Below, piece by piece: positions 32,610 through 51,275 of a DNA stretch of 64,000 nt (positions are counted from its first letter, which is position 1; each line of letters starts with the position of its first letter). Under the pieces are notes generated by a model that was not told the DNA's origin, ran no database searches, and was given only the letters and a program-made list of their open reading frames with translations. The DNA comes from Patescibacteria group bacterium (lineage in GTDB: Bacteria > Patescibacteriota > Patescibacteriia > UBA1558 > UBA10009): assembly GCA_041662565.1 (NCBI GenBank), contig JBAZSE010000002.1, positions 91,244 to 155,243 on the forward strand, in the 5' to 3' direction. The position numbers and the translations under genes were made by a program.

Positions 32610-32623
32610 TTTTATCTAAATAA

Positions 32624-32906: not shown

Positions 32907-33782
32907 TTAATCAAGCGGACTTTTAATACCACTAAAGCTATTGGCCACCTGAACATAACCCTCGGTGGTTTTTAAATTAACATGCCCTAACAGTTTTTGA
33001 ATAACCCTGATATCCGTGCCATTTTGCAAAAGATGCGTAGCAAAAGAATGCCTTAAAGAATGAATCCCCGCTTTTTTATTGATGTTGGCACAAACCAGGG
33101 CTTGATTAAAAATTTTTTGCGCCGATCTGGAAGTTAAATGACTCCTATTTTCCGCTCCATTATACAAATACTTTTGTTCCGCTGGCAATGTTGGCAAATA
33201 CTGATTTAATAGTTCTGTCGAATGATGGCTTAATAAAGTTACCCTATCTTTTGCGCCCTTACCCGACTTCACCATAATTTTATTTTGTCTCAAATCCAGA
33301 TGCTCAATCTTTAAACAAACCGCTTCCGAAACCCTTAAACCCGAACCATACATTATGGATAGTAACAATTTATGTTTAAGATTGTCTGTTAGCTCCAGCA
33401 ATTTGATTATTTCCTCTTTAGATAAAACAGTTGGCAAATATTTTTCCTTAGTTGGGCGAGTAATATTAAAAAACAGCTTCCGTTTAAGAATCTGTTGAAA
33501 ATAAAACTTTAAAGCCGAAATTGTTAAATTTAATGAAGTATTGGATTGCCCCTGTGCCTTAAGGTAAAGAAGATAATTTTTAACATCCTGCGTTGTTGCT
33601 TCTTTAGCTGACTTACCAATATAAACCAGAAATCTCCGGTTAATACTTAAATACGCTTCTATTGTTCGTTTGGAAAAACCCCTAATGATCAGCTCTTGAG
33701 CTAAAGTTGCCAATGGGTTTACTTTTTGAATGTTTGGCTTATAATAGGAGGATAAGCCAACCTCATTAAAACCGCTTTTCAT
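32907..33782 (-). CDS. tyrosine site-specific recombinase; candidate integron integrase (IntI-like), divergent from cassette array
   Basis: catalytic residues in GLRVSEA (R), HSLRHSFAT (H-x-x-R), LLGH (H), EGYVQV (Y); position and orientation relative to attC array. Confidence 0.6.
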   Translation of the reverse strand: MKSGFNEVGLSSYYKPNIQKVNPLATLAQELIIRGFSKRTIEAYLSINRRFLVYIGKSAKEATTQDVKNYLLYLKAQGQSNTSLNLTISALKFYFQQILKRKLFFNITRPTKEKYLPTVLSKEEIIKLLELTDNLKHKLLLSIMYGSGLRVSEAVCLKIEHLDLRQNKIMVKSGKGAKDRVTLLSHHSTELLNQYLPTLPAEQKYLYNGAENRSHLTSRSAQKIFNQALVCANINKKAGIHSLRHSFATHLLQNGTDIRVIQKLLGHVNLKTTEGYVQVANSFSGIKSPLD

Positions 33783-34692: not shown

Positions 34693-34836
34693 GTACAACA
34701 CCCCATATGCGGTTCCGCGCCTTGCTAGGCGCTTCACCCAAATTGCTTGTCCGCTTAGGCGGTTAGCTCGGCTATCGCCTCGCGATTATACCGCCACGCG
34801 GCCTGCGCAACTTCGCATATGGTGGCACGTTATATG
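34693..34836 (+). repeat. attC site 1 (R'' GTACAAC ... R' GTTATAT)
   Basis: ccatatgcg / cgcatatgg inner repeats; crossover G|TT at ~34830. Confidence 0.7.
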
Positions 34837-34868
34837 AAATATTTAATTTTATTTTTAATCACAAAACT

Positions 34869-35375
34869 ATGATACCAGGCTGGTTAATTGCAATTCTTAC
34901 GTTTCCAGGAATTATTGCTCATGAGTTTGGGCACATGTTTTTTTGTAAACAATTTAATGTCAAAATCCATAAAGTTTGCTATTTTAGATTTGGAAACCCG
35001 GCTGGCTATGTAATACATGATGACCCTAATAACTTTAAACAATCTTTTTTTATTGACGTAGGCCCATTTATTGTCAGTAATATATTAGCTATTGTTGCCT
35101 TTATTTTCTCTGCCTCCCTTATGAATAGTATAGAAAGCGCGGGAATATTCTTTAGCTGGCTTGGTATTTCTTTTGCGATGAATTCTTTTCCTAGTAAAGG
35201 TGATGCAAAAGTTCTATGGGCCGTTACAAAAAAACATTCTGAAAAAGATAGTTTTCTTAAACTTATTGGGTATCCTTTTGCAATTATAATCTACATTGCA
35301 AATTTATTAAGTTTTATTTGGTTTGATTTAATTTGGGCAATTGGATTATATACATTAGTTAATAGTATAATATAA
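34869..35375 (+). CDS. membrane HExxH zinc-metallopeptidase-like protein (DUF3267-like)
   Basis: AHEFGHMFF motif in first TM helix, 4-5 TM segments. Confidence 0.45.
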   Translation: MIPGWLIAILTFPGIIAHEFGHMFFCKQFNVKIHKVCYFRFGNPAGYVIHDDPNNFKQSFFIDVGPFIVSNILAIVAFIFSASLMNSIESAGIFFSWLGISFAMNSFPSKGDAKVLWAVTKKHSEKDSFLKLIGYPFAIIIYIANLLSFIWFDLIWAIGLYTLVNSII

Positions 35376-35395
35376 AAAATAAAATTAAATACATC

Positions 35396-35971
35396 ATATA
35401 ACACAGGATTGCCGGTTCATAAACTAAATAAAACTTAATAATATGGAAAACCAACCGTATGATCCAGTTGGACACATTAAAATACTAGCTTCTGACTTTA
35501 AAAAAAGTTACTCTTTTTACAAGGATATTTTTGAGGCCTTAAATTACAAACAGGTCTCCAATAAAGAAAATAGTGCTGGTTGGGCTAAAAATGGATATGG
35601 TATATTATTAGGGCAAGCAAAAATCATTGATTTTCCATATAAATATGGGATGCCTGGAATTCATCATATTTGCTTAAAAGCAGAGTCAACTGATAAAGTA
35701 GATGAATTATACAATCTAGCAGTTAAAAAAGAGGTTCATATTTATGAACCACCTCAAAAATATCCTAATTATACCGATAAGTATTATGCTGTATTTTTCG
35801 CTGACCCAGATGGAATGAAAATGGAAATAGCTTATTATTAAGTTTTCTTTAGTTTATTCACCCAAATTGCTCGTTCCCCCTCGTCGCTACGGTGCTAGGC
35901 CTCCGGCCAATTTTAGCACCTTCGCTCGCTCGGGGTCACTTCGCAACTTCGGCAATCCACGCACGTTGTGC
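35396..35971 (+). repeat. split attC site 2: 5' arm (R'' ATATAAC + AGGATTGCCG) and 3' arm (CGGCAATCC + R' GTTGTGC) separated by the VOC ORF
   Basis: L'' aggattgccg at ~35404-35413 is the reverse complement of cggcaatcc at ~35952-35960; 3' arm begins ttcacccaaattgct as in intact attCs. Confidence 0.55.
35443..35841 (+). CDS. VOC/glyoxalase-bleomycin-resistance-fold protein (copy 1)
   Basis: 132 aa; near-identical paralogue at 49242-49640 including 45 nt upstream. Confidence 0.5.
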   Translation: MENQPYDPVGHIKILASDFKKSYSFYKDIFEALNYKQVSNKENSAGWAKNGYGILLGQAKIIDFPYKYGMPGIHHICLKAESTDKVDELYNLAVKKEVHIYEPPQKYPNYTDKYYAVFFADPDGMKMEIAYY

Positions 35972-36004
35972 GAAATAAAATTTTTTTCAGCCTAAAACAT
36001 ACAT

Positions 36005-36487
36005 ATGACAATAATTAAAAAGGCAAAAATCAATGATGCCGCAAATATTGCAAAAATGGCAGTAGCATTATTAAAATACCATGCAAATTTTGATCCATAT
36101 TTTGCCCCCATTAATGACGCAGAAAATATTTATGCTAAGTATTTTAAAAAGTGTATTTACTCTCCAACAAAGCAATTACTGGTGGCAGAATGTGACGGGA
36201 AGTTAGCCGGCTACGCTTTAATTGAAATTACTTCTAGACCCCCTGTTTTCAAAGTAAAAAATATGGGGTTAGTCAATGATATTTTTGTGGTGGCTAAGTT
36301 TCGTAGAAAAGGTGTGGGAAAAGAACTTTTTATCGGTATGCTGGATTGGATTAAAAGTAAAAAACCAGGATATAAATCACTAGACTATATAGAACTATCA
36401 GTAAATATAAAAGACATTATTAGCCAAAAAGCGTGGGCAAAGTATGGATTCAAAGAATATATAAGCAAACAAAGAATGAAGATATAA
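36005..36487 (+). CDS. GNAT-family N-acetyltransferase
   Basis: VAKFRRKGVGKELF acetyl-CoA binding motif A. Confidence 0.65.
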   Translation: MTIIKKAKINDAANIAKMAVALLKYHANFDPYFAPINDAENIYAKYFKKCIYSPTKQLLVAECDGKLAGYALIEITSRPPVFKVKNMGLVNDIFVVAKFRRKGVGKELFIGMLDWIKSKKPGYKSLDYIELSVNIKDIISQKAWAKYGFKEYISKQRMKI

Positions 36488-36512
36488 AACCGGCTGAAAA
36501 AATTTTACATCG

Positions 36513-37035
36513 CACAACACAGGATTGCCGATTCGCAAGGCGAAAAATCTCATTATGTATGAACGAATATACTAAATACATAGGTCAAATAGTTAAGGTT
36601 ATTATGGATAGGCCAATGGGTACTACTCATCCTAGAATCCCAGAAATTTACTATACTCTAAACTATGGTTATATTCCTGATACAATGGCCCCTGATGGTG
36701 AAGAGATAGATGCATATATATTGGGTATTTCTGAACCACTATCTGAATTTACTGGAGAATGTATTGCAGTAATTCATAGATTAAACGATAATGATGATAA
36801 GCTGATAGTTGTGCCAAAAGGGATTACCTTTACTGATGAGCAAATTATAACCTTAACTAACTTTCAGGAAAAATATTTTAAAAGCGAGATTATCAGGAAC
36901 TAAGTTATTTTTTCGCCTTGCTCATCCAAATTGCTCGTTCCCCCTCGTCGCTACGGTGCTAGGCCTCCGGCCAATTTTAGCACCTTCGCTCGCTCGGGGT
37001 CACTTCGCAACTTCGGCAATCCACGCACGTTAGGC
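36513..37035 (+). repeat. split attC site 3: R'' GCACAAC + AGGATTGCCG ... ORF ... CGGCAATCC + R' GTTAGGC
   Basis: R'' complements cassette start TTGTGC; arms complementary across a 345-nt ORF. Confidence 0.55.
36559..36903 (+). CDS. inorganic-pyrophosphatase-like protein (short, N-terminally reduced), encoded inside split attC
   Basis: YTLNYGYIPDTMAPDGEEIDAYILG and DNDDKLIVVP resemble family I PPase motifs. Confidence 0.35.
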   Translation: MNEYTKYIGQIVKVIMDRPMGTTHPRIPEIYYTLNYGYIPDTMAPDGEEIDAYILGISEPLSEFTGECIAVIHRLNDNDDKLIVVPKGITFTDEQIITLTNFQEKYFKSEIIRN

Positions 37036-37106
37036 GTAATTCCATTTCAAGAAAGATAATTTTTGTTATTTTTTGGGAAAAGAAAAAGGAGGGCAGATAC
37101 ACAGAT

Positions 37107-37418
37107 CTACCCTCCATTGATTTGATACTTTCGCTTTCTTGGGATTCTTACTCTAAACAAAGGCTTTTTATATAGTGGCTCTTTATATAGAGAAACAAAA
37201 GCAATAACTCCTACCACTGGACTAGCAACCATCCCTATAATCAATACAATATTGTCAAATAGAGAAGGTTCCATAGACGGCCCATTGTAACCAAGGGTAT
37301 GTAAGTTATTGACTAAAACTATTGCACCGCAAGTTATAACAGGCAAAAGTGCGGCTACAATAGCTCCAACGCAAGATCTTATAACTCTTTTCATCTCTCC
37401 CTCATAAAATTTTGCCAC
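37107..37418 (-). CDS. reverse-oriented cassette ORF: small membrane protein with own promoter
   Basis: minus-strand TTGACA-17-TATTAT at ~37448-37476 and GAGGGAG Shine-Dalgarno. Confidence 0.45.
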   Translation of the reverse strand: MAKFYEGEMKRVIRSCVGAIVAALLPVITCGAIVLVNNLHTLGYNGPSMEPSLFDNIVLIIGMVASPVVGVIAFVSLYKEPLYKKPLFRVRIPRKRKYQINGG

Positions 37419-37623
37419 TAAAGGAGTGACACCTTATAAATGAACCATTTAATAAATTATAATAGCATGGTATTTCTATTCTGTCAATCTATGCCACTTC
37501 GTTTTTTACTAAATTTAGCTAATATTAGCCAAAAATAACAAAAATTATTAAAAAATACATTGTAAAATCAAGGTTTTTCAATTATTAAGAGATTATGGTA
37601 GGATTATTGGGAAATGGAACACC

Positions 37624-37830
37624 GCCTAACACCGCGTATGCGGCTTTAGCTTCCGCCTCTCTAACTAGCATTGATATTTCTTAACAAAACTGCTTAAATT
37701 AGATTAAGCAGTTTTAGTTTTTAATACAGAACGTGCGGCGTAAGCTAAAGCGTACATTGGCGGGTGGTTCCCCGCCTGTCGGCGGGATATTTTACCACCC
37801 GCCAACGTCGCATACGCACGCACGTTAGGC
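37624..37830 (+). repeat. attC site 4 (long type; R'' GCCTAAC ... R' GTTAGGC) with internal hairpin ctgcttaa-attagat-ttaagcag
   Basis: ccgcgtatgcg / cgcatacgcacg inner repeats. Confidence 0.7.
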
Positions 37831-37869
37831 GTAATTAATTTTAAATTTAAACATTATTATACTAAATAC

Positions 37870-38751
37870 ATGGGAATAGAAAAATACACTTTCACTGAAA
37901 AAAATAATTTATTTGAAAAAGGAGAAGTAGATCCTGATTTTGAAATACAAAAAACAACAGTTGAAGATGCCTTAAGTAGAGCTATTTATGTTGGGGAAGG
38001 ATACGCTAGCGAAAGCCTGCTCAAAGAAAGACCAGGTTATTATGCTAGCTACCAGTCGAATCACGGAATCGACCGAGACCCGGAGTCAGGCAAAATTATT
38101 CCAGGATCTTTCATGAGAAAAAGTATTAAATTAGAAGGTTACTGTTGGCTCGTTGTTGATATAGATGAATATTTTGCAGAATTCGAAAAATCAATTACTG
38201 ACCCAAGTAGAATTTTTGAACTTGCTGAAAAAACCCATCCTTCATTATTAAAACTTATTCGAGCAAGAGGGTTCTTAAAACAAGAAGATTCCATAGAACA
38301 GAGAAAAGAAGATCTTATTACAAATTTAATTGGCATGGAAAATAAAAATAATCTAGCAATAACTTTTGCATATGAGGGTACGGATGAGAACGCGGAAAAA
38401 CTATTTAATGATTTATTTTCAAATAGAGATAAGAAAATAGATGAGGAGAGGCAAATAACTGAAAGTTTAGTAAGTAATGATTCAGAAGTTCAAATCGTAT
38501 TTAATCAAAAAGAGGGACGGGCTGATTTTAAGTCAGTATTTATGGATAACGATAGCGGTATTGGTAGATTTCGTTTTTGGCTACCAGAAGGATTATCAAA
38601 AATAGGAATTGAGCATCCAGAAAGATTTAAAAAAATTTTAGATGATATTAAGTTACTAATTGATAAATTAAAAGAAAATAAGCAAGTTTCACAAATCCAT
38701 ATAAGTCTTGGGACTGGAGTTTTATCTCCATTTTGGAAAAGAAATGAATAA
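37870..38751 (+). CDS. cassette hypothetical protein
   Basis: 293 aa ORF. Confidence 0.5.
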   Translation: MGIEKYTFTEKNNLFEKGEVDPDFEIQKTTVEDALSRAIYVGEGYASESLLKERPGYYASYQSNHGIDRDPESGKIIPGSFMRKSIKLEGYCWLVVDIDEYFAEFEKSITDPSRIFELAEKTHPSLLKLIRARGFLKQEDSIEQRKEDLITNLIGMENKNNLAITFAYEGTDENAEKLFNDLFSNRDKKIDEERQITESLVSNDSEVQIVFNQKEGRADFKSVFMDNDSGIGRFRFWLPEGLSKIGIEHPERFKKILDDIKLLIDKLKENKQVSQIHISLGTGVLSPFWKRNE

Positions 38752-38771
38752 TAAAATTGAAAATTAACACC

Positions 38772-38907
38772 GCCTAACACCCCATATGCGGTTCCGCCCG
38801 CCTGCTGTCGGGCTTCACCCAAATTACTCGTTCGTTCGGGGGTCGGCTCCGCCGATATTTTACCCCCTCACTCACTTCGCAACTTCGCATATGGTGGCAC
38901 GTTAGGT
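38772..38907 (+). repeat. attC site 5 (short type; R'' GCCTAAC ... R' GTTAGGT)
   Basis: ccatatgcg / cgcatatgg. Confidence 0.7.
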
Positions 38908-39064
38908 GAAATAAATTTTTCTTTTAGGGGCAAGTTGAACGATAATACTTTTAAAATAACGGATAAAATTTTGCTTTTTCTTTTTTATTTTAGGGGGATA
39001 TAGGTGTTTTTGCCCCCGACAAAGCGGGGTCAAAAACGATTTATAATAATTAAATACAAAATAT

Positions 39065-39814
39065 ATGAGATTATTCCTAGATGAAACTATATGGAAAACA
39101 AAAAGAGGTTTTACTTTTGATAAAGCTGCTAGCTATTTAGCCATAGGAATTCATGGGGGTCAAGATTTTTTTACATTACCCGTAGGAAGCATACCTGTTT
39201 ACGCCCCTTGCGATGGTGAACTAATAACATTCCCTGGGTTTTCTAAATCAGCTGGTTGGTGGGGTGTATACAGATTCCAATGTAATAATGCTACTTACAG
39301 TTTAAAAATCCTACACATGTACAAAGAACTTAAAGCTGGTAAATACAAAGAAGGTGATATTCTAGGATATTGCGGAGGAACAGGGCTAGCCGTAACCGGA
39401 AAATACGGAACATCATATATAGGAGAATCGCATGAGGAACAAACTTCAGACAGAGCCGTCCCTCATCTACACGCAGAACTTCATATTGGAGAATATAAGC
39501 ATGACACAAACAAAAATAAACTACTAGCACAACAACGCTTAATTGATCCGGTCAAAACCTTTGAAAAATGGCTAAGCGAAACATTAACAACTCAAAATAA
39601 TATGACTTTCTATAAAGAAAAAGATAAATCATCGGTATACATCAAAGGCGCGGATAACATTTACTACCCTATTATAACAGGTAAACATTTCTTAACTTTA
39701 TTTGGCGACTGGAAAGACAATAAAATAAACGAAGTTGACTCCCTGGAACCAAAATCTGACATATATTTTGGGTTATTTAAATCACAAGACGATGGAAAAT
39801 ACGACATTGCATAA
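39065..39814 (+). CDS. M23-family (LytM/lysostaphin-like) metallopeptidase domain protein
   Basis: HGGQD (HxxxD), GSIPVYAPCDGELI, PHLHAELH (HxH) motifs. Confidence 0.6.
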   Translation: MRLFLDETIWKTKRGFTFDKAASYLAIGIHGGQDFFTLPVGSIPVYAPCDGELITFPGFSKSAGWWGVYRFQCNNATYSLKILHMYKELKAGKYKEGDILGYCGGTGLAVTGKYGTSYIGESHEEQTSDRAVPHLHAELHIGEYKHDTNKNKLLAQQRLIDPVKTFEKWLSETLTTQNNMTFYKEKDKSSVYIKGADNIYYPIITGKHFLTLFGDWKDNKINEVDSLEPKSDIYFGLFKSQDDGKYDIA

Positions 39815-39829
39815 AAATAAATTAATTCT

Positions 39830-41434
39830 ATGAGAATTTCAAAAATCATTGTAGAAAACTACAGGTCAATTGAAAGAGTAGAGGTTATACCAGAAAATTT
39901 TTCTATTTTCGTTGGACAAAACAACCATGGAAAAACAAATTTTTTTGAAGCGATAGAATGGTTTTATAACGCTAAATCTTCAAAAGAGGATGAGCACTTT
40001 CAACGCGAAACAAGCAATACTATTAGCGTTGAAATATTATTTGAAGATGTTCAAGAATCAGACATAAATAAGTTAAAAACCGAAGGAAATAAAACAAAAA
40101 TACGTACCATGCTAGGCACAAACACTAGCTTCTCCATTATAAAAAAGAGTCCGGACAATAAAAGAAGCTACTTTGTAAACGAAGAGGATAAGGGCAATCC
40201 TTCTGGTTTAGATACCGCCATAAACGAATTTTTACCTAAATTAGAATATGTTGATACAAAATTAAGACTTGACGATGTTTCAAAATATAAAGATAAAAAT
40301 CCAATAGGCACAATGCTATCCGGGGTTCTAACTACAATTATAGAAAATTCTCAAGACTATATAAATTTCAAAGTAACATTTTCAAAACTATTTGACAGCG
40401 AGGAATCAGAAGTTCGCCAGGAATTAAATAAATTAGGCGCTAAAGTTGAGATCTACTTACAAAAACAATTTCCCGATGGCACGAAAGTTAAATTTACGGT
40501 TAATTCCCCTGAATTTACTGATTTATTGAAGAATTTTGAAACTACTGTAGATGACGGCGTTGAAACTAAGGCCGAAGACAAAGGAGATGGAATGCAGAGA
40601 GCAATTATGTTATCGATTATTCAAGCATTCGCTGATTATAGAAAGGAACAAACAGGTGGTGGCACATTTCTATTTTTAATAGATGAAGCCGAACTTCATT
40701 TGCACCCATCAGCACAAAGAGCATTAAAAAAAGCATTACTAGATATATGTTCAACCGACCAAGTTTTTATAAATACTCATTCATCAGTTCTGGTTGTTGA
40801 TAATCATGAACTGCAAAAAATATTCAAAGTTGAAAAAGAAAATAAAATTACTAATATCACAGGGGTTGGCGATGCAGAAAAAATTGATATAATTTTTGAT
40901 TTACTAGGTGGCAGTCCTTCTGATTTATTATTACCAAGAAATTTTATTATAGTTGAGGGCAGAAGTGAATTTGTTTTCATAAATACAGTTATTAAACGTT
41001 TTTATGCTGAAAAGTATAGGGGTATAAAAATTATTTTTGCCGGCGGGGATCTAGATCAACAAGAACCATCTCTTCTTGCGGTGCATAAATTATTCGTTCC
41101 CTTAGCTGGTTCAGATAATCCTATATATAAAGAAGAGGCCATTATGTTAATTGATAAACCTAATTCGGAACAACAAACAAAATATAATTCTTTTAAATCA
41201 GGCTACCCATACCTTTTCACAAATAACCAAGTTTTTGAATTAACGTCCGAAACTCTTGAGGAATATTACCCAAATGGTTATAAAAAAACAAAAAATGAAA
41301 TACAGGTGGATAAAAAAGTGTCCTATGCAGAAGAGGTGGGTAATAAAATTACACAGGCACAATTTGAATCTGAAATGAAAATTATACACGACGCGCTAGA
41401 GGCAGCAAATACAAAAGGCTTCAATGTTCAATAA
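39830..41434 (+). CDS. OLD-family ATP-dependent endonuclease (ABC-type ATPase + Toprim)
   Basis: GQNNHGKTN Walker A, LFLIDEAELHLHP Walker B/D-loop, C-terminal IIVEGRSE Toprim glutamate and GGDLD. Confidence 0.65.
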   Translation: MRISKIIVENYRSIERVEVIPENFSIFVGQNNHGKTNFFEAIEWFYNAKSSKEDEHFQRETSNTISVEILFEDVQESDINKLKTEGNKTKIRTMLGTNTSFSIIKKSPDNKRSYFVNEEDKGNPSGLDTAINEFLPKLEYVDTKLRLDDVSKYKDKNPIGTMLSGVLTTIIENSQDYINFKVTFSKLFDSEESEVRQELNKLGAKVEIYLQKQFPDGTKVKFTVNSPEFTDLLKNFETTVDDGVETKAEDKGDGMQRAIMLSIIQAFADYRKEQTGGGTFLFLIDEAELHLHPSAQRALKKALLDICSTDQVFINTHSSVLVVDNHELQKIFKVEKENKITNITGVGDAEKIDIIFDLLGGSPSDLLLPRNFIIVEGRSEFVFINTVIKRFYAEKYRGIKIIFAGGDLDQQEPSLLAVHKLFVPLAGSDNPIYKEEAIMLIDKPNSEQQTKYNSFKSGYPYLFTNNQVFELTSETLEEYYPNGYKKTKNEIQVDKKVSYAEEVGNKITQAQFESEMKIIHDALEAANTKGFNVQ

Positions 41435-42224
41435 GGATAAACGTCTTGCCATAAAATTTAAAAATTGGCTTTTAAATAAGCTTTTTGATATAATTAGTTT
41501 CAGAAAAATAAAATTTATGCCCTACTTAAAATTTATATCTGACCAAGATTTAATAAAAGCTGTCAATAAAGTTGTCGGAATTATTGAAAAAGCTGAAGAA
41601 GACGCAGACGCTACATTATATCAAAATGTCATTGACCCTTTCTCTGCCCTATTTCACGGCATTACCCATTCAATGTCATGCAAAGAATGGATTATGCAAG
41701 AAAAGGCAAGGCAAACTCAAAAAACAATGCAAAATGCCATTGGTGATTTTCACCAAGAGATATTGGGATCTATCCCCGGTTGGAAAAACCTTGGCGTAGG
41801 CGGTGGTTTAGATGTTATAAACCTAGAAAAAGAGATTATCGCTGAGGTAAAAAACAAATTCAACACAACAAAGGGTAATCACAAAGTTGAGATATATGAC
41901 GCTATTAAAATGACCTTGAAAAACAATCAGCACAAAGACTTTACTGGCTATTTTGTAGAAATTATCCCTCAAGGAAAGCGTATATACGACAAACCATTTA
42001 CCCCACCAGACAACAAAACCAAGAAAAGACGGCCTGTAAATAACAAAATACGGGTAATTGACGGCGTTAGCTTCTACGCCTTGGCTACTGGACGCAAATT
42101 TGCCTTACAGGAGCTGTTTGAAGTTTTACCAAAAGTTATATCTGAAAACCATAAATATAATCTAAATAAGGCTGAAACCGCTCAATATTTTGAATTATTT
42201 AAAAGAGCTTTTTCCACAGAATAA
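41424..42224 (+). CDS. hypothetical protein, possible PD-(D/E)xK nuclease (restriction-endonuclease candidate); start overlaps OLD gene stop
   Basis: GLDVINLEKEIIAEVKNK D...E.K arrangement; 11-nt overlap implies co-translation. Confidence 0.3.
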   Translation: MFNKDKRLAIKFKNWLLNKLFDIISFRKIKFMPYLKFISDQDLIKAVNKVVGIIEKAEEDADATLYQNVIDPFSALFHGITHSMSCKEWIMQEKARQTQKTMQNAIGDFHQEILGSIPGWKNLGVGGGLDVINLEKEIIAEVKNKFNTTKGNHKVEIYDAIKMTLKNNQHKDFTGYFVEIIPQGKRIYDKPFTPPDNKTKKRRPVNNKIRVIDGVSFYALATGRKFALQELFEVLPKVISENHKYNLNKAETAQYFELFKRAFSTE

Positions 42225-42238
42225 CCATTGCCTAGGCA

Positions 42239-43543
42239 ATGGTTATAGAATATAATAATGATAGACTAATCCTCTATCATTTTTATATGAAAACAAAAGA
42301 ACAATATTTTACAGCCGGTGAGGCTGCCGTAAAATTAGGAATCTCTATTGATACTATTAGAAGATGGGATAAAGGTGGCTTAATAAAATCTTTTCGCAAT
42401 GAAAGAAATGATCGAATCTTTAGTTTAGAGGAAATAAAAAGGATTCAAAACAAAACGCAGAGTAGTAATAGTAAAAATAAATACAAAATATTAACTAACA
42501 AAAAATCTTCTCCTTATACCGTAATTGAGCTATTTGCTGGCGCAGGCGGAACCGCTCTAGGCATGGAAAATGCTGGGATTAAGCATGTATTACTAAATGA
42601 AAATGATAAACATGCTTGCGAAACATTAAGAATTAACAAACCTAATTGGAATGTTGTTGAAGAGGATGTAAGAAAACTATCTTTCACTGAAGGCCAAGCA
42701 GACATTGTCCAAGGCGGATTCCCCTGCCAAACATTTTCCTATGCTGGTAGAAAAATGGGTTTTGAAGATATCCGGGGAACTTTGTTTTTTGAATTTGCTA
42801 GATGCGTTAAAGAGGTTAGGCCTAAAATAGCAATTGGTGAAAATGTAAAAGGATTACTAAATCACGACAACGGAAGAACGCTAAAAACTATGGTCGCTGT
42901 TTTAGAAGATCTAGGATATAGAGTTAAATGTAAAGTATTAAAATCACAATACTTTGATGTGCCTCAAAAAAGAGAACGCCTAATTATTATCGGCGTTAGA
43001 AAAGACTTAGACATTCCCATTTCATTTCCAAAAGAAAAAGATTACATAATCCCATTGCGCGAAGCTCTTTATAAATGCCCTAAATCAGAAGGTCAAGAAT
43101 ACCCAGCGAGCAAGAAAAAAATAATGGATTTAATACCACCGGGCGGATATTGGAGAAATCTACCAGAAAAACTGCAAAAAGAATATATGGGCGCTAGTTT
43201 TTTTATGGGTGGTGGTAAAACAGGGATAGCAAGGAGATTATCTTTAGACGAGCCATCGCTAACACTAACTTGTAGCCCAGCTCAAAAACAAACTGAACGC
43301 TGTCATCCTCTAGAAACACGCCCTCTTTCTGTAAGAGAATACGCTAGAATTCAAACATTCCCAGACAATTGGAAATTTGCCGGCTCTGTTGCTCAACAAT
43401 ATAAGCAGATTGGAAATGCTGTGCCCGTAAATCTTGGATACTATATTGGTGATAATATTGTAAAAATGCTAAACGGAGAGATTAAAGAAGAAGAGGAAGA
43501 GCCAATTATGTATAGACAACAAGTGTTCTCTTTTGCTACCTAA
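42239..43543 (+). CDS. DNA (cytosine-5)-methyltransferase with N-terminal MerR-like HTH; likely true start MKTKEQ near 42287
   Basis: FAGAGG (motif I), GFPCQTFS (IV), GENVKGLL (VI), QIGNAVPV (X); N-terminal GEAAVKLGISIDTIRRWDKGGLI HTH. Confidence 0.8.
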   Translation: MVIEYNNDRLILYHFYMKTKEQYFTAGEAAVKLGISIDTIRRWDKGGLIKSFRNERNDRIFSLEEIKRIQNKTQSSNSKNKYKILTNKKSSPYTVIELFAGAGGTALGMENAGIKHVLLNENDKHACETLRINKPNWNVVEEDVRKLSFTEGQADIVQGGFPCQTFSYAGRKMGFEDIRGTLFFEFARCVKEVRPKIAIGENVKGLLNHDNGRTLKTMVAVLEDLGYRVKCKVLKSQYFDVPQKRERLIIIGVRKDLDIPISFPKEKDYIIPLREALYKCPKSEGQEYPASKKKIMDLIPPGGYWRNLPEKLQKEYMGASFFMGGGKTGIARRLSLDEPSLTLTCSPAQKQTERCHPLETRPLSVREYARIQTFPDNWKFAGSVAQQYKQIGNAVPVNLGYYIGDNIVKMLNGEIKEEEEEPIMYRQQVFSFAT

Positions 43544-43690
43544 TTAGATATTTAAAACGGTTTTGGCTCAGGGGCATTCACCCCTAGCCCCTCTGCCCCC
43601 TCGCCAAAAACGGAAAAAGCAAAATTTTATAACTCAATAATTAAACTGATAAGGCAGATAAATAAGAAAAATTTACATCGGCTAACACCC

Positions 43691-43915
43691 CATATGCGGC
43701 TTAGCTTACGCCTACTATAGTAAGATTGCTATTTGAACTTAAAAATGCTTAAATTAGATTAAGCATTTTTGCTTTAGTAAGCTGTTATTACGGCGTAAGC
43801 TGCGCCCAAATTAGCTCCTCCGTGGCGGCGGTGGGCTCCCCCTCGACTTCGCTCGGGGTCGCAATTATACCACCGCCACTCCGTCGCTAACTTCGCATAT
43901 GGTGGCACGTTATAT
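43691..43915 (+). repeat. attC site 6 (hybrid long type; R' GTTATAT)
   Basis: 5' arm long-type with gcttaaattagattaagc hairpin, 3' arm short-type cgcatatggtggcacgtt. Confidence 0.65.
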
Positions 43916-43964
43916 GAAATTCAGAAGCCCCTAATTTAAATAATTAACAACAAATCATAAAATT

Positions 43965-44486
43965 ATGCAAAAAAGAACAACACTTATAATAGCTACCTTA
44001 GTCATTGCTGGTATTATTGGGGTTTATTATTATACTAAGGACACATATTCTCTATCTTTGATAAACCAACCGACGCCAATAAATATCAATTCTGATTCAG
44101 AAATAGATCCACCGACTTCAAAAAAAATCGGAGTTTCTGATCCTTCAGATTCACCTAAGACTGAGTCAAAAAACACTGATCAAAAATGGCAAGAGGAAAT
44201 ATGTAAAAACCTTTCACAAAATGAATGTGAAAATAATGATAATTGCTCAGGAGCATATGGTTCTAGTTATTGCGCTCCTAATGGAGGCCCATGTACAATG
44301 GATATGGCTTTTAAGTCATGCTTTCCTTCTGGTTTAAATGCTAACGAGATACAACAACTCAAAATGGAGTGTGATAAAATTGGCGGGGAATATAATAAAA
44401 TTGGTTCTAGCATCTATTGTAGTTGTAACAACCAGAATGACAATGTTTGCCTAAAAGAATTAATGTCAGAATTGATAAATAATTAA
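43965..44486 (+). CDS. Cys-rich secreted/membrane-anchored protein
   Basis: N-terminal TM/signal, 14 Cys in C-terminal 90 aa. Confidence 0.45.
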   Translation: MQKRTTLIIATLVIAGIIGVYYYTKDTYSLSLINQPTPININSDSEIDPPTSKKIGVSDPSDSPKTESKNTDQKWQEEICKNLSQNECENNDNCSGAYGSSYCAPNGGPCTMDMAFKSCFPSGLNANEIQQLKMECDKIGGEYNKIGSSIYCSCNNQNDNVCLKELMSELINN

Positions 44487-44501
44487 ACCCTTACGTGGGC
44501 T

Positions 44502-44676
44502 TCTGAACTTCATATAACACCCCATATGCGGTTCCGCTCGCCACTCGCAGGCTCGTGTCTCACTTCACCCAAATTGCTTGTCCGCTTAGGCGGTAGCGCT
44601 TACGCGCAATTATACCGCCACGCGTCCTGCGCAACTTCGCATATGGTGGACAGTTAGGTGAAATATCGTCCAATTT
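44502..44676 (+). repeat. attC site 7 (R'' ATATAAC ... R' GTTAGGT)
   Basis: R'' complements cassette start TTATAT. Confidence 0.7.
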
Positions 44677-44762
44677 CTGCTTCGTATATTGACAAAAATA
44701 CTCAATTAATATAGGGTAGGTTATTACGCCCTTAGTTCAACCGTTCAACTTTAGGAAAGATC

Positions 44763-45083
44763 ATGAAGGTAAAAGGGATCACAGAGGTCCAAGTTTTCGT
44801 ACGCAAAAACGAACCAGTTTCGGAAGGAGATTTTCCTCCTTCTCATTACCTGGTGGTAAGAAAACATTTCGCTTGTGGCGATTTAGTCATTGGCATTGAT
44901 AACAGATTGAATCTCGATGTTCTTCATGCCAGTACCAAACCGCACTTCCAGCTGAGTTCGTACCGACAAAAGGGCACGATTGGATTGCCGAACGACATTA
45001 TCCAAAGTGCCACAAAAATCGTCCAAGAACAGCGGGTACTGAACAGAAAGTTCAGAACAGTTAAGCTACTTTTACCTGCTTAG
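44763..45083 (+). CDS. cassette hypothetical protein, GC-rich coding sequence
   Basis: 106 aa; followed by 15-bp-stem terminator at 45089-45132. Confidence 0.4.
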   Translation: MKVKGITEVQVFVRKNEPVSEGDFPPSHYLVVRKHFACGDLVIGIDNRLNLDVLHASTKPHFQLSSYRQKGTIGLPNDIIQSATKIVQEQRVLNRKFRTVKLLLPA

Positions 45084-45088
45084 ACCAA

Positions 45089-45132
45089 TGGTGGTGTGGT
45101 GATACAATATCGCCACACCACCTCTTTTTTTT
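45089..45132 (+). terminator. strong intrinsic terminator inside cassette
   Basis: ggtggtgtggtgata caa tatcgccacaccacc + T8. Confidence 0.7.
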
Positions 45133-45157
45133 AAAAGCAGAAATTGTCCGATACATC

Positions 45158-45366
45158 ACCTAACACCGCGTATGCGGCTTTAGCTTCCGCCTCTTATAAT
45201 AAGGATTGATATTTCTAAACAAAACTGCTTAAATTAGATTAAGCGGTTTTAGTTTTAAATACAGAACGTACGGCGTAAGCTAAAGGCCTACATTGGCGGG
45301 TGGTTCCCCGCCTGCCGGCGGGATATTATACCACCCGCCAACGTCGCATACGCACGCACGTTAGGT
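45158..45366 (+). repeat. attC site 8 (long type; R'' ACCTAAC ... R' GTTAGGT)
   Basis: as site 4. Confidence 0.7.
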
Positions 45367-45480
45367 GAAATTTTACTCAACAAATACTATTTTTTAATTA
45401 AGCCCTTTTGGGATTTTTTTGTAAATGAAAAGTCCCGCATTAAATCGTTCTGCTGAACTTTTCAATGTGGGACTAACCTT

Positions 45481-45759
45481 TCAAAGGCAATGACTTTGCA
45501 TAAGTTCGCCCAATGCATGAAAGGCTACCTCGGATTGATCACCGAGTGGTATGTCGGTTGGGAAATCCCCTGGTTCTAATGGACAAACGCCATGTTCTTC
45601 CATTATAGCTTGGTTGAGTGCGATCTTGGCATCAAACAACTTTTGATCGTCGTCTGTTATGTCAACATTTGCCTCAAATTTCCAAAGCATTTCTACGGCA
45701 TTCTGCAATGTTGCCATCTGAATTTTTCTCTTGAATACGTTTGGTTCACCATGAATCAA
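45481..45759 (-). CDS. reverse-oriented cassette ORF, hypothetical protein with own promoter
   Basis: minus-strand TTGACA-17-TATTAT at ~45770-45806 immediately upstream of ATG. Confidence 0.4.
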   Translation of the reverse strand: MIHGEPNVFKRKIQMATLQNAVEMLWKFEANVDITDDDQKLFDAKIALNQAIMEEHGVCPLEPGDFPTDIPLGDQSEVAFHALGELMQSHCL

Positions 45760-45887
45760 ACAATATATAATAGCATATTATATAAAACCTGTCAAGCTTT
45801 TTAATAAAAAATACTTAAGTATAGCTAAAATTAGCCAAAAAATCCCAAAAGAGCTTAAAAATAAGGTAATTTGTTTCGTAAAACATC

Positions 45888-46094
45888 ACCTAACACCGCG
45901 TATGCGGCTTTAGCTTCCGCCTCTAAGTTCAAGGTTGATATTTCTTAACAAAACTGCTTAAATTAGATTAAGCGGTTTTAGTTCTGACTAAGAACGTGCG
46001 GCGTAAGCTAAAGGCCTACATTGGCGGGTGGTTCCCCGCCTGTCGGCGGGATATTATACCACCCGCCAACGTCGCATACGCACGCACGTTATAT
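45888..46094 (+). repeat. attC site 9 (long type; R'' ACCTAAC ... R' GTTATAT)
   Basis: as site 4. Confidence 0.7.
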
Positions 46095-46165
46095 GCCATA
46101 TTGCTCTTTGACAAGGTGTTTTTAAGAAGTGCACGAACAACAAACTAATTCATACGGAGGATGAA

Positions 46166-46429
46166 GTGAAAAACTTCTTCAACAAAATCAGCATACTCTG
46201 GCATAAGCTTAAGTTTGAGGAAAACTGGCTTAAGTTTGAGGAAAAAATTGGCTTTCTTCTAACGATTAAGCTGGTTTATGTATTAATCATCATTGGAATG
46301 ATTTATTTATGTGCTCCAGAACCCTATTCACATTATGCCCTTTGGTGTTGCTGGAGAATCATTCTCGCCGTGCTATTATACGAGCTGATTACACTTCTGC
46401 TTCAGCGTAGATGCACTAATTATAAGTAG
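46166..46429 (+). CDS. small membrane protein flanked by 20-bp inverted repeats
   Basis: 87 aa; IR aaggtgtttttaagaagtgca (46108-46127) / tgcacttcttaaaaacactt (46476-46495). Confidence 0.4.
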   Translation: MKNFFNKISILWHKLKFEENWLKFEEKIGFLLTIKLVYVLIIIGMIYLCAPEPYSHYALWCCWRIILAVLLYELITLLLQRRCTNYK

Positions 46430-46566
46430 CACGACGCAATTAACAGCAGGAAGAACACCACATGTGTTCTTCCTGCACTTCTTAAAAACACTTTGAAAGA
46501 TAATACTGAATTCAATAAATCTAATCAATTAAAAAGATTGTTTAAAATCAACGAGAGCAATACAGC

Positions 46567-46756
46567 ATATAACACCCCATATGCGGTTCCCCCGCCTACG
46601 CTTTCAGCTTCAGCGGGTTCACCCAAATTTTAATACTTTTCTTGCGGTGGCGCTCCCACCTACGCTCCTCGTCAGGCTCGGAGCTACGGCGGGCAAGCCG
46701 CGCAAATTATACCGCAATAAAAGTATTAAAACTTCGCATATGGTGGCACGTTAGCT
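46567..46756 (+). repeat. attC site 10 (R'' ATATAAC ... R' GTTAGCT)
   Basis: ccatatgcg / cgcatatgg. Confidence 0.7.
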
Positions 46757-46793
46757 GAAATTTTGTTTGCTTTTCATATAACTCAACATTAAT

Positions 46794-47240
46794 ATGTCAG
46801 AAAAAGAAAGGTTTAGACCATTCGCCGCCGCCTATCTCATACTAATTAAAGACGGGCAAGTTTTACTTTCTAAAAGACATAATACCGGATACCTAGATGG
46901 TAATTACGGCTTAATGTCCGGTCATTTTGATGGCGGTGAGACAGCTAAGCAATGTATTATTCGTGAAGCGAAAGAAGAGGCTGATACTACCTTAAGTCCG
47001 GAAGATCTTGAGGTAATTCATGTTATGCATAGACTTGAATCTGACAGGGAATATTTTGATATTTATCTTAAGTCTGAAAAATGGATTGGAGATATTACTA
47101 TCATGGAACCAGATAAATGTAGCGAGCTTAAGTGGAATAACATTGACGATCTTCCGGACAATATGGTTCCAGAAGTAAAACTTGCCCTTGAAAATATTAA
47201 TAAGGGCATACACTATGGTGAATTTGGCTGGACGGCTTGA
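46794..47240 (+). CDS. NUDIX hydrolase
   Basis: Nudix box GHFDGGETAKQCIIREAKEEADT. Confidence 0.7.
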   Translation: MSEKERFRPFAAAYLILIKDGQVLLSKRHNTGYLDGNYGLMSGHFDGGETAKQCIIREAKEEADTTLSPEDLEVIHVMHRLESDREYFDIYLKSEKWIGDITIMEPDKCSELKWNNIDDLPDNMVPEVKLALENINKGIHYGEFGWTA

Positions 47241-47269
47241 TGATAATAACAAAAGGCAAACAAAACATC

Positions 47270-47405
47270 AGCTAACACCCCATATGCGGTTCCATGCCCT
47301 TGCTAGGGCACTCCACCCAAATTGCTCGTTCGTTCGGGGGTCGGCTCCGCCGATATTATACCCCCTCACTCACTTCGCAACTTCGCATATGGTGGCACGT
47401 TAGGT
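47270..47405 (+). repeat. attC site 11 (R'' AGCTAAC ... R' GTTAGGT)
   Basis: R'' complements cassette start TTAGCT. Confidence 0.7.
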
Positions 47406-47439
47406 GCCATATCGCTAACATTTCACGACGAGATCAATT

Positions 47440-47826
47440 ATGGAAAATTCAAAACTTTCACTTTCAATATTGCCGCAAAAATTAGCAATTTGCCGGTTGA
47501 ATAAAGACGCTCGGATTCCTTCTTGGATTGACAATGATGATTATTTCTCAATCACTAAAACTAATAATGAGCTTTCGATAGTTTGTTCTGAGATCAAGGT
47601 GCCTGACGATATTAAAGCTGAAAAAAATTGGCGAGCATTAAAAGTCAACGGATTTTTGGATTTTTCACTTACGGGAATCCTCGCTTCGCTAACTACTCCA
47701 TTAGCAGAAGCTAAAATCAGTATTTTTGCCATATCAACATATGATACTGATTATATACTTGTAAAAGACGATAAGCTCGATGAAGCCGTGAAAGTTTTGA
47801 GCACTTTTTGCAACATTCAAAAATAA
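47440..47826 (+). CDS. ACT-domain-like small-molecule-binding protein
   Basis: 128 aa; ACT_7-like pattern (low confidence). Confidence 0.35.
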   Translation: MENSKLSLSILPQKLAICRLNKDARIPSWIDNDDYFSITKTNNELSIVCSEIKVPDDIKAEKNWRALKVNGFLDFSLTGILASLTTPLAEAKISIFAISTYDTDYILVKDDKLDEAVKVLSTFCNIQK

Positions 47827-47847
47827 ATTCTGAAAACGCGATACAGC

Positions 47848-48508
47848 ACCTAACACAGCGTATCTGGTTTCGTGAAAAGAAAAAATAATAAATAATTTCA
47901 GATATTTAATTAGTTCTTTTAAAATTTTATTATAAAAAAGGCCGCCTCAACCTTCTTGGGTATATTGGCGGTAATGATGTCGGCTTGAGGTAGTATTCTA
48001 CAATTTCCGAAGATCCAGAGCGGGGTTCGGGAAAAAGCAGACCTTGCCACCAAATGCATCTACTGATATGTAGAGCACGTTTGTGCCCTTTGCCTTGCAG
48101 CCGGACCTTGCCGACAAAGGTGCCACGCCGACTACGGTAGCACTTCTGCGATAGGGATCTTCCACCCTATCGCCGGGCTCAAAACCGAATTGAGCGCAAG
48201 CCTCCTTAGAAGGATCAACCTTCAAAACCGTGCCATTAAAGGCAGTAACTTCCTGCAACATTAGCACTCCCTATACTTGTGAGATTGTGTCTTGTGTATT
48301 TTTACAATTCATGGAATAGTATCATTATTTTAAAATTATGTCAATGTTAGTATAAAATTTTAAAAGAACATTAATTAAGGTAAATTATTTATTATATTTC
48401 TCTTCACTTCACCCAAATTTTCTGTTTACTTCGGGGGTAGGCTCGCTACCGCTCGCAATTATACCCCCTCCGTTCACAGAAAACTTCAGATACGCACGCA
48501 CGTTAGGC
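47848..48508 (+). repeat. split attC site 12 (~660 bp): R'' ACCTAAC + CAGCGTATCTG ... embedded minus-strand ORF ... CAGATACGCACG + R' GTTAGGC
   Basis: cgtatctg at 5' arm is reverse complement of cagatacg in 3' arm; 3' arm starts ttcacccaaatttt. Confidence 0.5.
47998..48267 (-). CDS. hypothetical protein encoded on GC-rich insert inside attC 12
   Basis: 89 aa minus-strand ORF; GC content well above flanking DNA. Confidence 0.4.
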   Translation of the reverse strand: MLMLQEVTAFNGTVLKVDPSKEACAQFGFEPGDRVEDPYRRSATVVGVAPLSARSGCKAKGTNVLYISVDAFGGKVCFFPNPALDLRKL

Positions 48509-48528
48509 GAAATTTCGCCCCTACTCAT

Positions 48529-49179
48529 ATGATTACAGAACAAGTAAAACAACTGGGTAAAAAGGTATGCGAATACCTTAAAATGAATAACATTCTTGAA
48601 AAATCTGATTGTATTTTAGTTTTAGGCAGTTATGACGAAAGGGTGGCTATTAGAGCATCAGAATTATACTTACAAGGATTAGCACCTCTGCTTGTATTTT
48701 CAGGTGGATTTGGTAAATTTGCCAAAGATAATTGGGGCGAGGCCGAAGCTGATCATTTTGCAAAAATAGCTATTAAAATGGGTGTGCCTAAAAAGAACAT
48801 CTTGATTGAAAATCAATCAACTAATACCGGAGAGAATATATTATTTACACAAAACCTCTTTCACGAAAAAGGTTTAAACCTAAATAGCTTCATTATTGTT
48901 CAAAAGCCATATATGGAAAGAAGAAGCTATGCCACTTTTAAAAAATATTGGCCCGATAAAAAAGTTTTAGTAACCTCGCCCCAATTATCTTTTGAAGAAT
49001 ACCCGACAACTGGTATATCAATGGAAAGAGTAATTAATACTGCAGTTGGCGACCTACAAAGAGTAAAACTTTATTCTGAAAATGGGTATCAGATTTTTCA
49101 AGAAATATCTAAAGATGTTTGGGATGCTTATGAACAGTTAGTGGCTCTTGGATATAATAAACGTTTAATAAAAGAATAA
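48529..49179 (+). CDS. DUF218/YdcF-like (SanA/ElyC family) protein
   Basis: STNTGENI motif (cf. STNTYEN in YdcF). Confidence 0.5.
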   Translation: MITEQVKQLGKKVCEYLKMNNILEKSDCILVLGSYDERVAIRASELYLQGLAPLLVFSGGFGKFAKDNWGEAEADHFAKIAIKMGVPKKNILIENQSTNTGENILFTQNLFHEKGLNLNSFIIVQKPYMERRSYATFKKYWPDKKVLVTSPQLSFEEYPTTGISMERVINTAVGDLQRVKLYSENGYQIFQEISKDVWDAYEQLVALGYNKRLIKE

Positions 49180-49194
49180 TCGGGGCGAAACATC

Positions 49195-49760
49195 ACCTAA
49201 CACAGGATTGCCGGTTCATAAACTAAATAAAACTTAATAATATGGAAAATCAACCATATGATCCAGTTGGTCACATTAAAATATTAGCATCTGACTTTAA
49301 GAAAAATTATTCTTTTTACAAGGATATTTTTGAGGCCTTAGATTATAAACAAGTTTCCAATAAAGAAAATAGCGCTGGTTGGGCGAAAAATGGTTATAGT
49401 ATATTATTAGGGCAGGCTAAAATCATAGATTATCCATTTAAATATGGCATGCCTGGTATTCATCATATCTGCTTAAAGGCAGAGTCAACTGATAAAGTAG
49501 ATGAATTATATAATCTAGCAATTAAAAAAGAGGTTCATATATATGAACCGCCTAAAAAATATCCTAATTATACCAATAAGTATTACGCTGTATTTTTTGC
49601 TGACCCAGACGGAATGAAGATAGAAATAGCTTATTATTAAGTTTTCTTTAGCTTATTCACGCAAATTGCTCATTTCCCCTCGTCGCTACGGTGCTAGGCC
49701 TATCGGCCAATTTTAGCACTTCCGCTCAAGTAAAACTTCGCATATGGTGGCACGTTAGGT
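49195..49760 (+). repeat. split, chimeric attC site 13: 5' arm AGGATTGCCG-type, 3' arm short-type (cgcatatggtgg), enclosing VOC copy 2
   Basis: 5' arm and 45-nt leader identical to 35396-35442; 3' arm L' does not complement 5' L''. Confidence 0.5.
49242..49640 (+). CDS. VOC/glyoxalase-fold protein (copy 2)
   Basis: paralogue of 35443-35841 with only a few substitutions. Confidence 0.5.
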   Translation: MENQPYDPVGHIKILASDFKKNYSFYKDIFEALDYKQVSNKENSAGWAKNGYSILLGQAKIIDYPFKYGMPGIHHICLKAESTDKVDELYNLAIKKEVHIYEPPKKYPNYTNKYYAVFFADPDGMKIEIAYY

Positions 49761-51252: not shown

Positions 51253-51275
51253 AGGAAAAAATTTCTGTCTACATC

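Follow-up and report, generated by a model that had tools for sequence, protein, structure and literature searches.

An integron-like cassette of a Patescibacteria group bacterium that carries an Eco47II-type restriction-modification unit and an OLD-family protein

PrrC guards within the EcoprrI Type I locus, and PARIS senses Ocr. Guardians of restriction-modification (R-M) systems are an established concept (PMC12707154), and OLD-ABC/TOPRIM modules have been reported as backup effectors in BREX and BREX-related loci (PMC12839542). Class 1 OLD proteins (P2 Old, Thermus scotoductus OLD, Vibrio cholerae OLD and Escherichia coli YbjD) are defined by their isolated genomic context (PMC10568477, PMC6755086), and the cue that activates them, together with their stand-alone defence, is a question posed in the field (PMC10568477). 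Here, we analysed a 64,000-nt stretch of a Patescibacteria group bacterium (contig JBAZSE010000002.1, positions 91,244 to 155,243; hereafter the window) and within it a 5,008-bp cassette between two attC-like sites. As the original prediction had it, the cassette holds four co-oriented genes, whose open reading frames (ORFs) span 39065-39814, 39830-41434, 41424-42224 and 42239-43543 and encode an M23-like peptidase, an OLD-family ATPase-nuclease, a restriction endonuclease (REase) and a cytosine-5 (m5C) DNA methyltransferase (MTase).

We consider it probable that this cassette is a stack of separately evolved, known defence modules and not a new two-protein system. Two censuses carry this reading. 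The first covered 80 metagenome loci centred on REase homologues (47-78% identity): the REase is directly followed by an MTase of the cassette type (44-83% identical, helix-turn-helix (HTH) region included) in 72 of them; of the eight exceptions, seven lie on contigs truncated soon after the REase, and the last, L110, offers about 2.9 kb downstream without an MTase match. OLD and M23-like genes are absent from all 80 of these metagenome loci, and the R-M pair stands by itself as a unit, independent of OLD. The second census covered 80 genome loci picked by similarity around OLD homologues (45-82% identical), with neighbours detected from seeds (phmmer with verified neighbours), a procedure that can miss MTase or REase families and yields counts that are lower bounds; its statistics ignore phylogenetic kinship. 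Neither an Eco47II-type REase nor an M23-like gene was found in any of these 80 loci. An undescribed system of OLD plus partner, one of the two possibilities originally raised, is therefore not borne out by either census.

Comparison with the described OLD systems places the OLD-family protein closest to Class 1. Like the Class 1 proteins, it is one ABC ATPase-Toprim polypeptide of about 530 aa, and it likewise has no GajB, retron or AriB partner; by architecture it fits that class. It differs from P2 Old, to which it is 27% identical in the ATPase part only, and it reads D-K-P at the Class 1 DxD motif. Its setting differs as well: whereas Class 1 is defined by isolation, the clade of the cassette protein is often operonic with R-M genes, and the window copy lies 82 nt from an R-M unit.

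GajA of Gabija (Class 2) is the best match to the cassette OLD in both PDB sequence and fold, but the cassette protein is shorter (534 aa versus 575-598 for the solved GajA chains) and the cassette lacks gajB. The earlier exclusion of Gabija for want of a UvrD-like GajB thus holds, the downstream genes being those of an Eco47II-type REase and an m5C MTase. The Gabija and retron (Class 3) assignments were both rejected, as the cassette has no helicase or reverse transcriptase and no retron non-coding RNA (Rfam); across the whole window, Rfam returned only a tRNA (55265-55336).

PARIS (Class 4) and PrrC/RloC also couple an ABC-type ATPase to a nuclease, and the ATPase of the cassette OLD resembles AriA. 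The cassette protein differs in lacking both an anticodon-nuclease (HEPN-type) domain and an AriB/DUF4435 match. PARIS had been excluded on the ground that ATPase and Toprim are fused here; the exclusion itself stands, since no AriB-type domain was matched, but its ground does not, as fused PARIS forms exist (PMC12392090). A fused AriB was rejected because the C-terminal 185 aa of OLD match no PADLOC family even at E<=10 and give no Pfam DUF4435 match. The hsdS-prrC-hsdR order of PrrC loci is mirrored by hsdS-OLD-hsdR in the clade, although the window OLD does not lie between R-M subunits. In the BREX-embedded cases, an OLD-type ATPase-nuclease has likewise been recruited into a methylation-based defence locus (PMC12839542); the present clade instead occupies R-M operons of the classical Types I and II, and its window member an integron-type cassette.

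The Eco47II-type restriction-modification unit

The third gene had been described as a 266-aa ORF encoding an uncharacterised partner of OLD. This description fails, as the ORF matches Pfam RE_Eco47II (PF09553; 1.7e-55, 188 bits against a cut-off of 25.9) and PADLOC REase_II (2.5e-55); a PDB sequence search with the REase gave no meaningful match. The PD-(D/E)xK triad, D99, E110 and K112 in the numbering of the 235-aa form, is invariant in 22 sequences, and its spacing is D-x10-E-x-K, not the D-x12-EVK arrangement initially read.

The true start of the REase is very probably Met32 of the longest ORF, at 41517 and 82 nt past the OLD stop, because homologues are about 235 aa long and nucleotide similarity to related loci begins only at 41469-41504. 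Nearly all of the best 120 homologues measure 231-236 aa (three are shorter and one has 244 aa); they cover 88% of the ORF, and none reaches its first 31 codons. The NCBI annotation of the source genome likewise starts the REase at the Met32 equivalent. In the comparison of the cassette with 77 stand-alone R-M loci, the nucleotide similarity that begins at 41469-41504 ends at 43537-43627. We therefore take the gene as 41517-42224 (+), encoding an Eco47II/Sau96I-family Type II REase of 235 aa.

The 11-nt overlap between the OLD stop and the ORF from 41424, on which translational coupling had been proposed, is probably an artefact of choosing the longest ORF. Coupling was rejected on the length of the homologues, on the onset of nucleotide homology only after 41468 and on the lack of conservation of the 31-codon extension. 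The same overlap, with the co-orientation of the genes in one cassette, is what speaks for an obligate two-component system in which OLD and the 266-aa protein would form a coupled nuclease pair and the MTase would protect self DNA. Such a system is highly improbable, since the supposed partner belongs to the Eco47II family of REases, its homologues start at the Met32 equivalent without the extension, and co-occurrence was absent either way (0 of 80 loci per test).

The spacer between OLD and REase holds two overlapping sigma-70-like promoter matches (41465-41514, +), a candidate promoter of the R-M unit. Their hexamers are TTGGCT-18-TATAAT, with a TG, and TTGATA-18-TAAAAT; each agrees at 10 of 12 positions, these being consensus matches only, and such matches are no commoner in the region as a whole than in shuffles. 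It is at this promoter-like spacer that similarity to the stand-alone R-M loci begins.

The MTase gene (42239-43543, +) encodes 434 aa with an N-terminal MerR-type HTH at about residues 23-70 (42305-42448 in the window). Both parts had been recognised from motifs, which are visible in the translation, and both were borne out by profile matches (Pfam DNA_methylase 1.2e-83, MerR_1 1.8e-07; TIGR00675 dcm 2.1e-80). By family and position, the protein appears to be the cognate MTase of the REase. The pair thereby shares with Eco47II/Sau96I R-M systems the REase family, an adjoining cognate-type m5C MTase and the R-then-M order. It differs from them in three respects: two further genes accompany it in an integron-type cassette, its specificity is a prediction, and its MTase bears the N-terminal MerR-type HTH, which is kept in its relatives from the candidate phyla radiation (CPR).

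By analogy, the HTH-fused MTase most likely autoregulates the R-M unit. The MerR-type HTH would repress or tune the unit's own promoter in the 82-nt spacer upstream of the REase in an SsoII-like manner; a precedent for SsoII-type autoregulation is found in the reference list of PMC12707154. As the first module of the cassette, the two genes form a complete Type IIP R-M unit, in which, by homology, the MTase would protect GGNCC and the REase would cut unmethylated GGNCC.

Eco47II and Sau96I recognise GGNCC, and the source name of one REase homologue reads "Eco47II Sau96I"; the R-M unit is accordingly predicted to share this specificity. GGNCC is absent from the 5,008-bp cassette, where composition predicts 4.5 sites and a first-order Markov model 8.3; not one of 300 simulations was likewise free of the site. 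Control motifs of the same composition are present in the cassette (CCNGG 7, GCNGC 6, CGNCG 8, GGCC 5), and the cassette falls within the window's longest run free of GGNCC (37279-44286). This absence fits the predicted specificity. Across the window as a whole, GGNCC is not under-represented, with observed/expected ratios of 1.01 (composition) and 0.71 (Markov), and window-wide avoidance was set aside as uninformative about R-M activity; the absence of sites therefore informs on the cassette and not on the host.

Other motifs are strongly under-represented in the whole window: AGNCT occurs 38 times against 134-223 expected, and the observed/expected ratios of GTAC and TCGA are 0.29 and 0.31. 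The corresponding ratios for GGWCC and GGSCC are 0.49 and 1.85. These values suggest that other R-M systems exert pressure in this lineage.

Among the other R-M loci, attC-like ends are plausible in one case only. In L097, a stand-alone Eco47II-type R-M locus, the attC-like left end TAACACAGCGTATGCGG lies at about 8181, some 160 nt past the MTase stop. Elsewhere, too, R-M units of this kind may be organised as integron cassettes.

The OLD-family protein and its genomic neighbours

The second gene (39830-41434, +) encodes 534 aa, and its assignment to the OLD family, proposed from motifs, was confirmed by profile matches. PADLOC ranks Old first (1e-61), followed by AriA (5.8e-34, ATPase half) and GajA (about 1e-22); Pfam gives AAA_15 (3.6e-31) and, above its cut-off, DUF2813 (YbjD-type); and phrog_4747 (2.6e-71) spans residues 1-500. 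PDB sequence matches are GajA and Thermus OLD (6p74). The ATPase motifs comprise Walker A G34-K35-T36, the signature KGDGMQRA (its first seven residues being K251-R257), Walker B D285-E286 and H317, and these residues are invariant or nearly so among homologues.

In all, 1611 homologues were found at E<=1e-10, the best 120 of which measure 531-567 aa and are 66-82% identical. The AlphaFold2 (AF2) model (pLDDT 79.9) shows a beta-alpha Toprim topology with E376 after beta1 and D442 after beta3, and Foldseek with the full-length model retrieved GajA (6.8e-21), Thermus OLD 6p74 (1.4e-19) and the retron-Eco8 OLD. Judged from its sequence conservation, the gene is under strong purifying selection; it is full length and no degraded ATPase. 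The alternative set against the original prediction, an ordinary R-M cassette with unrelated genes, thus proves half right: the 266-aa protein does belong to a known REase family, but the OLD-like ORF is not a degraded ABC ATPase, being full length with a Toprim fold.

The C-terminal 185 aa form a narrow family: a search of 1.84 billion proteins yields 213 representative clusters. A further group, about 430-470 aa in length (for example P0303-P0387), bears this Toprim-like domain at approximately residues 250-400 and represents a shorter ATPase-plus-domain architecture related to the clade of the window's OLD.

The catalytic set of Thermus OLD consists of E377, D431 and D433; D381, S478 and E480; and R487 (PMC7049728). 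We mapped these positions across 43 sequences; the AF2 alignment likewise comprised only 43. The metal A Glu (E376), the acidic residue at +4 (E380; E or D), the first Asp of DxD (D442) and the Glu of S/T-x-E (E477) are each kept in 43 of 43; the S/T of S/T-x-E (T475; S or T) is kept in 31 and the basic residue (K486; K or R) in 39. At the second Asp of DxD, the window protein has Pro444; this position is Pro in 37 of the 43 sequences and never Asp. With D-K-P replacing DxD, OLD lacks the complete two-metal catalytic set (PMC7049728).

The loss of this Asp across the family is what favours a reading in which OLD is no defence nuclease and its ATPase acts alone, whether in stabilisation of the cassette or addiction, in DNA repair or the cell cycle like the archaeal OLD Cran1, or as a regulatory partner. 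The Toprim domain of YbjD, for its part, is dispensable for the phage phenotype (PMC13261556). We nevertheless judge this reading very unlikely. The other catalytic positions are kept (four acidic ones throughout, S/T and K/R in most sequences), which would be surprising if the domain were dead; the surroundings are mobile and rich in defence genes, with recombinases and R-M genes nearby; and high identity across distant phyla points to the horizontal spread typical of defence genes.

The preferred reading, in which OLD is a defence module of its own, draws on the company that its homologues keep. The loci belong to CPR groups, Gammaproteobacteria, Bdellovibrionota, Bacteroidota, Acidobacteriota, Nitrospirota and others. 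Pfam-annotated neighbours give the orders HsdM-OLD-HsdR (L004, L010), HsdS-OLD-HsdR (L024, L025) and HsdM-OLD-HsdS (L070); elsewhere the homologue comes after a HaeIII REase and then Dcm (L003, L026), after an N4/N6 MTase and then a TdeIII REase (L002, L072) or after an N4/N6 MTase (L001, L047). The nearest homologues already abut different R-M systems: an N4/N6 MTase in L001 (82% identity), TdeIII in L002 (81%), HaeIII in L003 (79%) and Type I hsdM/hsdR in L004 (75%) and L010 (73%).

Quantitatively, MTase genes reach a density of 0.112/kb within 1.5 kb of OLD against 0.0133/kb further out in the same loci, an 8.5-fold enrichment (binomial p=7e-9). An MTase lies within 1.5 kb of OLD in 21 of the 80 loci, and a same-strand R-M gene within 60 nt in 13. 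The link is strongest nearest the window OLD (12 of 21 usable loci at >=60% identity) and weak in the more distant half. The OLD clade is statistically associated with R-M genes.

This association bears on the other possibility originally raised, a single cassette that joins an R-M system to an accessory nuclease of the OLD type. The data are compatible with it, as the clade recurs in unrelated R-M operons, while functional coupling is an extrapolation from that recurrence; an R-M system with an OLD accessory is plausible. In a rival reading, OLD would be an R-M guardian coupled to whichever R-M system it accompanies, silent while restriction works and firing, with abortive infection as the outcome, if a phage disables restriction, for instance by anti-restriction proteins or DNA mimics, or if restriction fails. 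Embedding of the clade in unrelated R-M types, with overlapping or 3-30 nt junctions and including hsdS-OLD-hsdR, speaks for such a role, as does the finding that OLD proteins at 75-82% identity stand beside entirely different R-M systems, which points to a partner-independent add-on. The resemblance of the ATPase half to AriA (5.8e-34) and the precedents of established guardians (PMC12707154) and of OLD backup effectors in BREX loci (PMC12839542) add to this.

Still, we hold a guardian role to be rather unlikely. Most of the more distant half of the OLD family is not beside R-M genes. In the window, OLD precedes an R-M unit that appears to have its own promoter, and the Eco47II-type pair, found without OLD in 80 of 80 loci, has no need of it. 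Defence genes, moreover, often co-localise without functional coupling.

As the second module of a stack, OLD would instead be an autonomous, second-layer nuclease from a widespread clade that habitually inserts into or abuts R-M operons of any type. On sensing some sign of infection, its ATPase dimer would allow the Toprim domain to attack nucleic acid, by DNA nicking like that of Vibrio OLD or by tRNA cleavage like that of P2 Old. We infer the trigger and substrate of OLD, and any cross-talk between the modules.

Other neighbours recur beside OLD homologues. A DUF2130 gene adjoins OLD in five loci (L005, L009, L020, L056, L077), with gaps of about 4-6 nt in four of the five; it lies upstream of OLD in L077 and downstream in the others, and L005 and L009 are hsdM-containing loci. 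An nSTAND3 NTPase (L011, L035, L073) or a PD-(D/E)xK protein (L012) follows the OLD homologue elsewhere, and serine or tyrosine recombinases are further recurrent neighbours. The DUF2130, nSTAND3 and PD-(D/E)xK genes are possible further OLD-partner architectures.

A literature search for OLD in classical R-M operons returned only BREX-related reports and general statements on guardians and accessory genes, and a prior description elsewhere is possible. The ABC-ATPase survey of Krishnan et al. (2020) may already describe such neighbourhoods.

The integron-like array and the M23-like gene

The core pattern of attC sites is RYYYAAC/GTTRRRY, and the cores of both sites that bound the cassette agree with it. 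By direct sequence reading, the upstream site (38772-38907, +) has R'' GCCTAAC at 38772-38778 and R' GTTAGGT at 38901-38907, so the cassette starts at about 38902, after the G of GTTAGGT. The downstream site (43680-43915, +; about 236 nt) has R'' GGCTAAC at 43680-43686 and R' GTTATAT at 43909-43915. The attC-to-attC interval originally given as 38902-43915 is therefore upheld, both of its coordinates coinciding with R' cores.

The two flanking sites share identical ends: a 19-mer right end, CGCATATGGTGGCACGTTA, at 38886 and 43894, and a 17-mer left end, TAACACCCCATATGCGG, at positions 38775 and 43683. The window has 7 copies of the former and 11 of the latter, against 0.01 and 0.09 expected from shuffles, and all copies are confined to about 34.7-51 kb (attC-like repeats 34696-51295). 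In bottom-strand folds the ends of both sites pair (z = -2.6, -3.2 and -5.2); the ends of the upstream site are paired in the centroid fold (z=-2.6), and the downstream site, whose ends are also paired, folds at -49.9 kcal/mol (z=-5.2). The interval thus shows the features by which an integron cassette is recognised: attC-like bounds, R''/R' cores, bottom-strand hairpins and an array of similar sites.

No repeat copy lies inside the interval at up to three mismatches. An internal, degraded attC that would divide it was rejected on this result and because the 15- and 14-nt gaps are too short to hold one. The full set of intergenic gaps is 15 nt, 82 nt (or the 11-nt overlap if the longest ORF is taken) and 14 nt; the 82-nt spacer between OLD and REase, with its promoter-like hexamers, is also without repeat ends. 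Two short contigs from other samples encode the identical OLD protein, with the gene order of the cassette as far as it can be read; one (L162) breaks off in the gene that follows the REase and the other (L163) in the one that follows OLD.

This chromosomal array is headed by a divergently oriented gene for a Xer/IntI-like tyrosine recombinase of 291 aa (32907-33782, -; Pfam Phage_integrase 7.9e-36). Against NCBIfam it scores 215.5 bits with the XerA/integron integrase model (cut-off 220) and 193.5 with integrase_gron (cut-off 265). Because these scores fall just under the integron-integrase cut-offs, we term the array integron-like. A full-text literature search found integrons and Patescibacteria mentioned together only in two resistome surveys; the cassette documents a multi-gene defence cargo in the integron-like array of a CPR bacterium.

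The array holds attC-like sequences of two types, CCCCATATGCGG and CCGCGTATGCGG. It is flanked by genes for TsaE (31767-32249, -) and TsaD (54168-55220, -), and genes for a HigB-like toxin and an RHH antitoxin lie between the recombinase and TsaE (about 32337-32839, -; from the L161 annotation). The downstream attC-like site is about 100 nt longer than neighbouring sites and contains a perfect hairpin, AAAAATGCTTAAAT...ATTTAAGCATTTTT (about 43738-43775), between GCGTAAGC/GCTTACGC arms, which suggests that it carries an insertion.

The first gene of the cassette (39065-39814, +) encodes an M23-like (LytM-type) protein of 249 aa, which would be the third module. The original call of an M23 peptidase stands on motifs, as H-G-G-Q-D (HxxxD) and H-L-H are present in the translation, but its Pfam support is weak: the match to Peptidase_M23 is below threshold (E=8e-4, 20 bits against a cut-off of 28.7). 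The protein has no match in PHROGs, NCBIfam or PADLOC, and no obvious signal peptide was seen.

The M23-like family is small (47 clusters). Nine contexts of homologues (among loci L164-L175) include as neighbours a CBASS operon, EMARD/HEPN_AbiU2/HNH, Mrr-like nucleases, HaeII- and AlwI-type R-M systems and an N4/N6 MTase. The homologue usually follows a co-oriented gene at 10-35 nt, and in one case its neighbours are TsaD and TsaE, which also bracket the array of the window. The gene either belongs to defence islands or is a conserved neighbour of a defence hotspot. A conserved pairing of M23-like and OLD genes was rejected, as no M23-like gene was found in the 80 OLD loci and no OLD in the nine M23 contexts.

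The cassette as a whole

Several observations weigh against the view of the cassette as separate defence modules. The M23-like gene sits 15 nt upstream of OLD, a proximity that a stack of modules leaves unexplained. The C-terminal part of OLD finds no family in PADLOC, as noted above, and matches Pfam OLD-like_TOPRIM at E=0.005, below the cut-off; with the second Asp of DxD missing, nuclease activity of OLD is not assured. As GGNCC is not depleted across the window, long-term R-M activity in the host is not evident. Finally, OLD elsewhere typically follows the MTase or lies between hsdS and hsdR, whereas the window copy precedes the R-M unit and is separated from it by a promoter-like spacer, and this different order weakens the analogy with R-M-embedded OLD genes.

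Even with these points counted, a stack of separately evolved modules remains the reading that we prefer. The cassette is ordinary in kind, an R-M system and a second defence gene on a mobile cassette. Within it, the R-M unit is an ordinary member of its family, and OLD is a variant, atypical by its context and its DxD motif.

A bolder proposal, which we offer as speculative and unlikely, is that the OLD clade (about 535 aa, with a D-K-P Toprim) is a portable, partner-agnostic plug-in for R-M systems that has reached many phyla through insertion into Type I and Type II R-M operons, a guardian or backup effector that would fire when restriction is blocked or overwhelmed. Were this true, the cassette would be a ready-made, two-layer defence package, and a Class 1-like OLD would gain a defined trigger.

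A by-product of the analysis is the recognition of a well-conserved OLD clade whose genes turn up time and again within R-M operons that are unrelated to one another. If this link is functional, the idea of the R-M guardian, known from PrrC, PARIS and BREX-embedded OLD, would extend to classical Type I and Type II systems.

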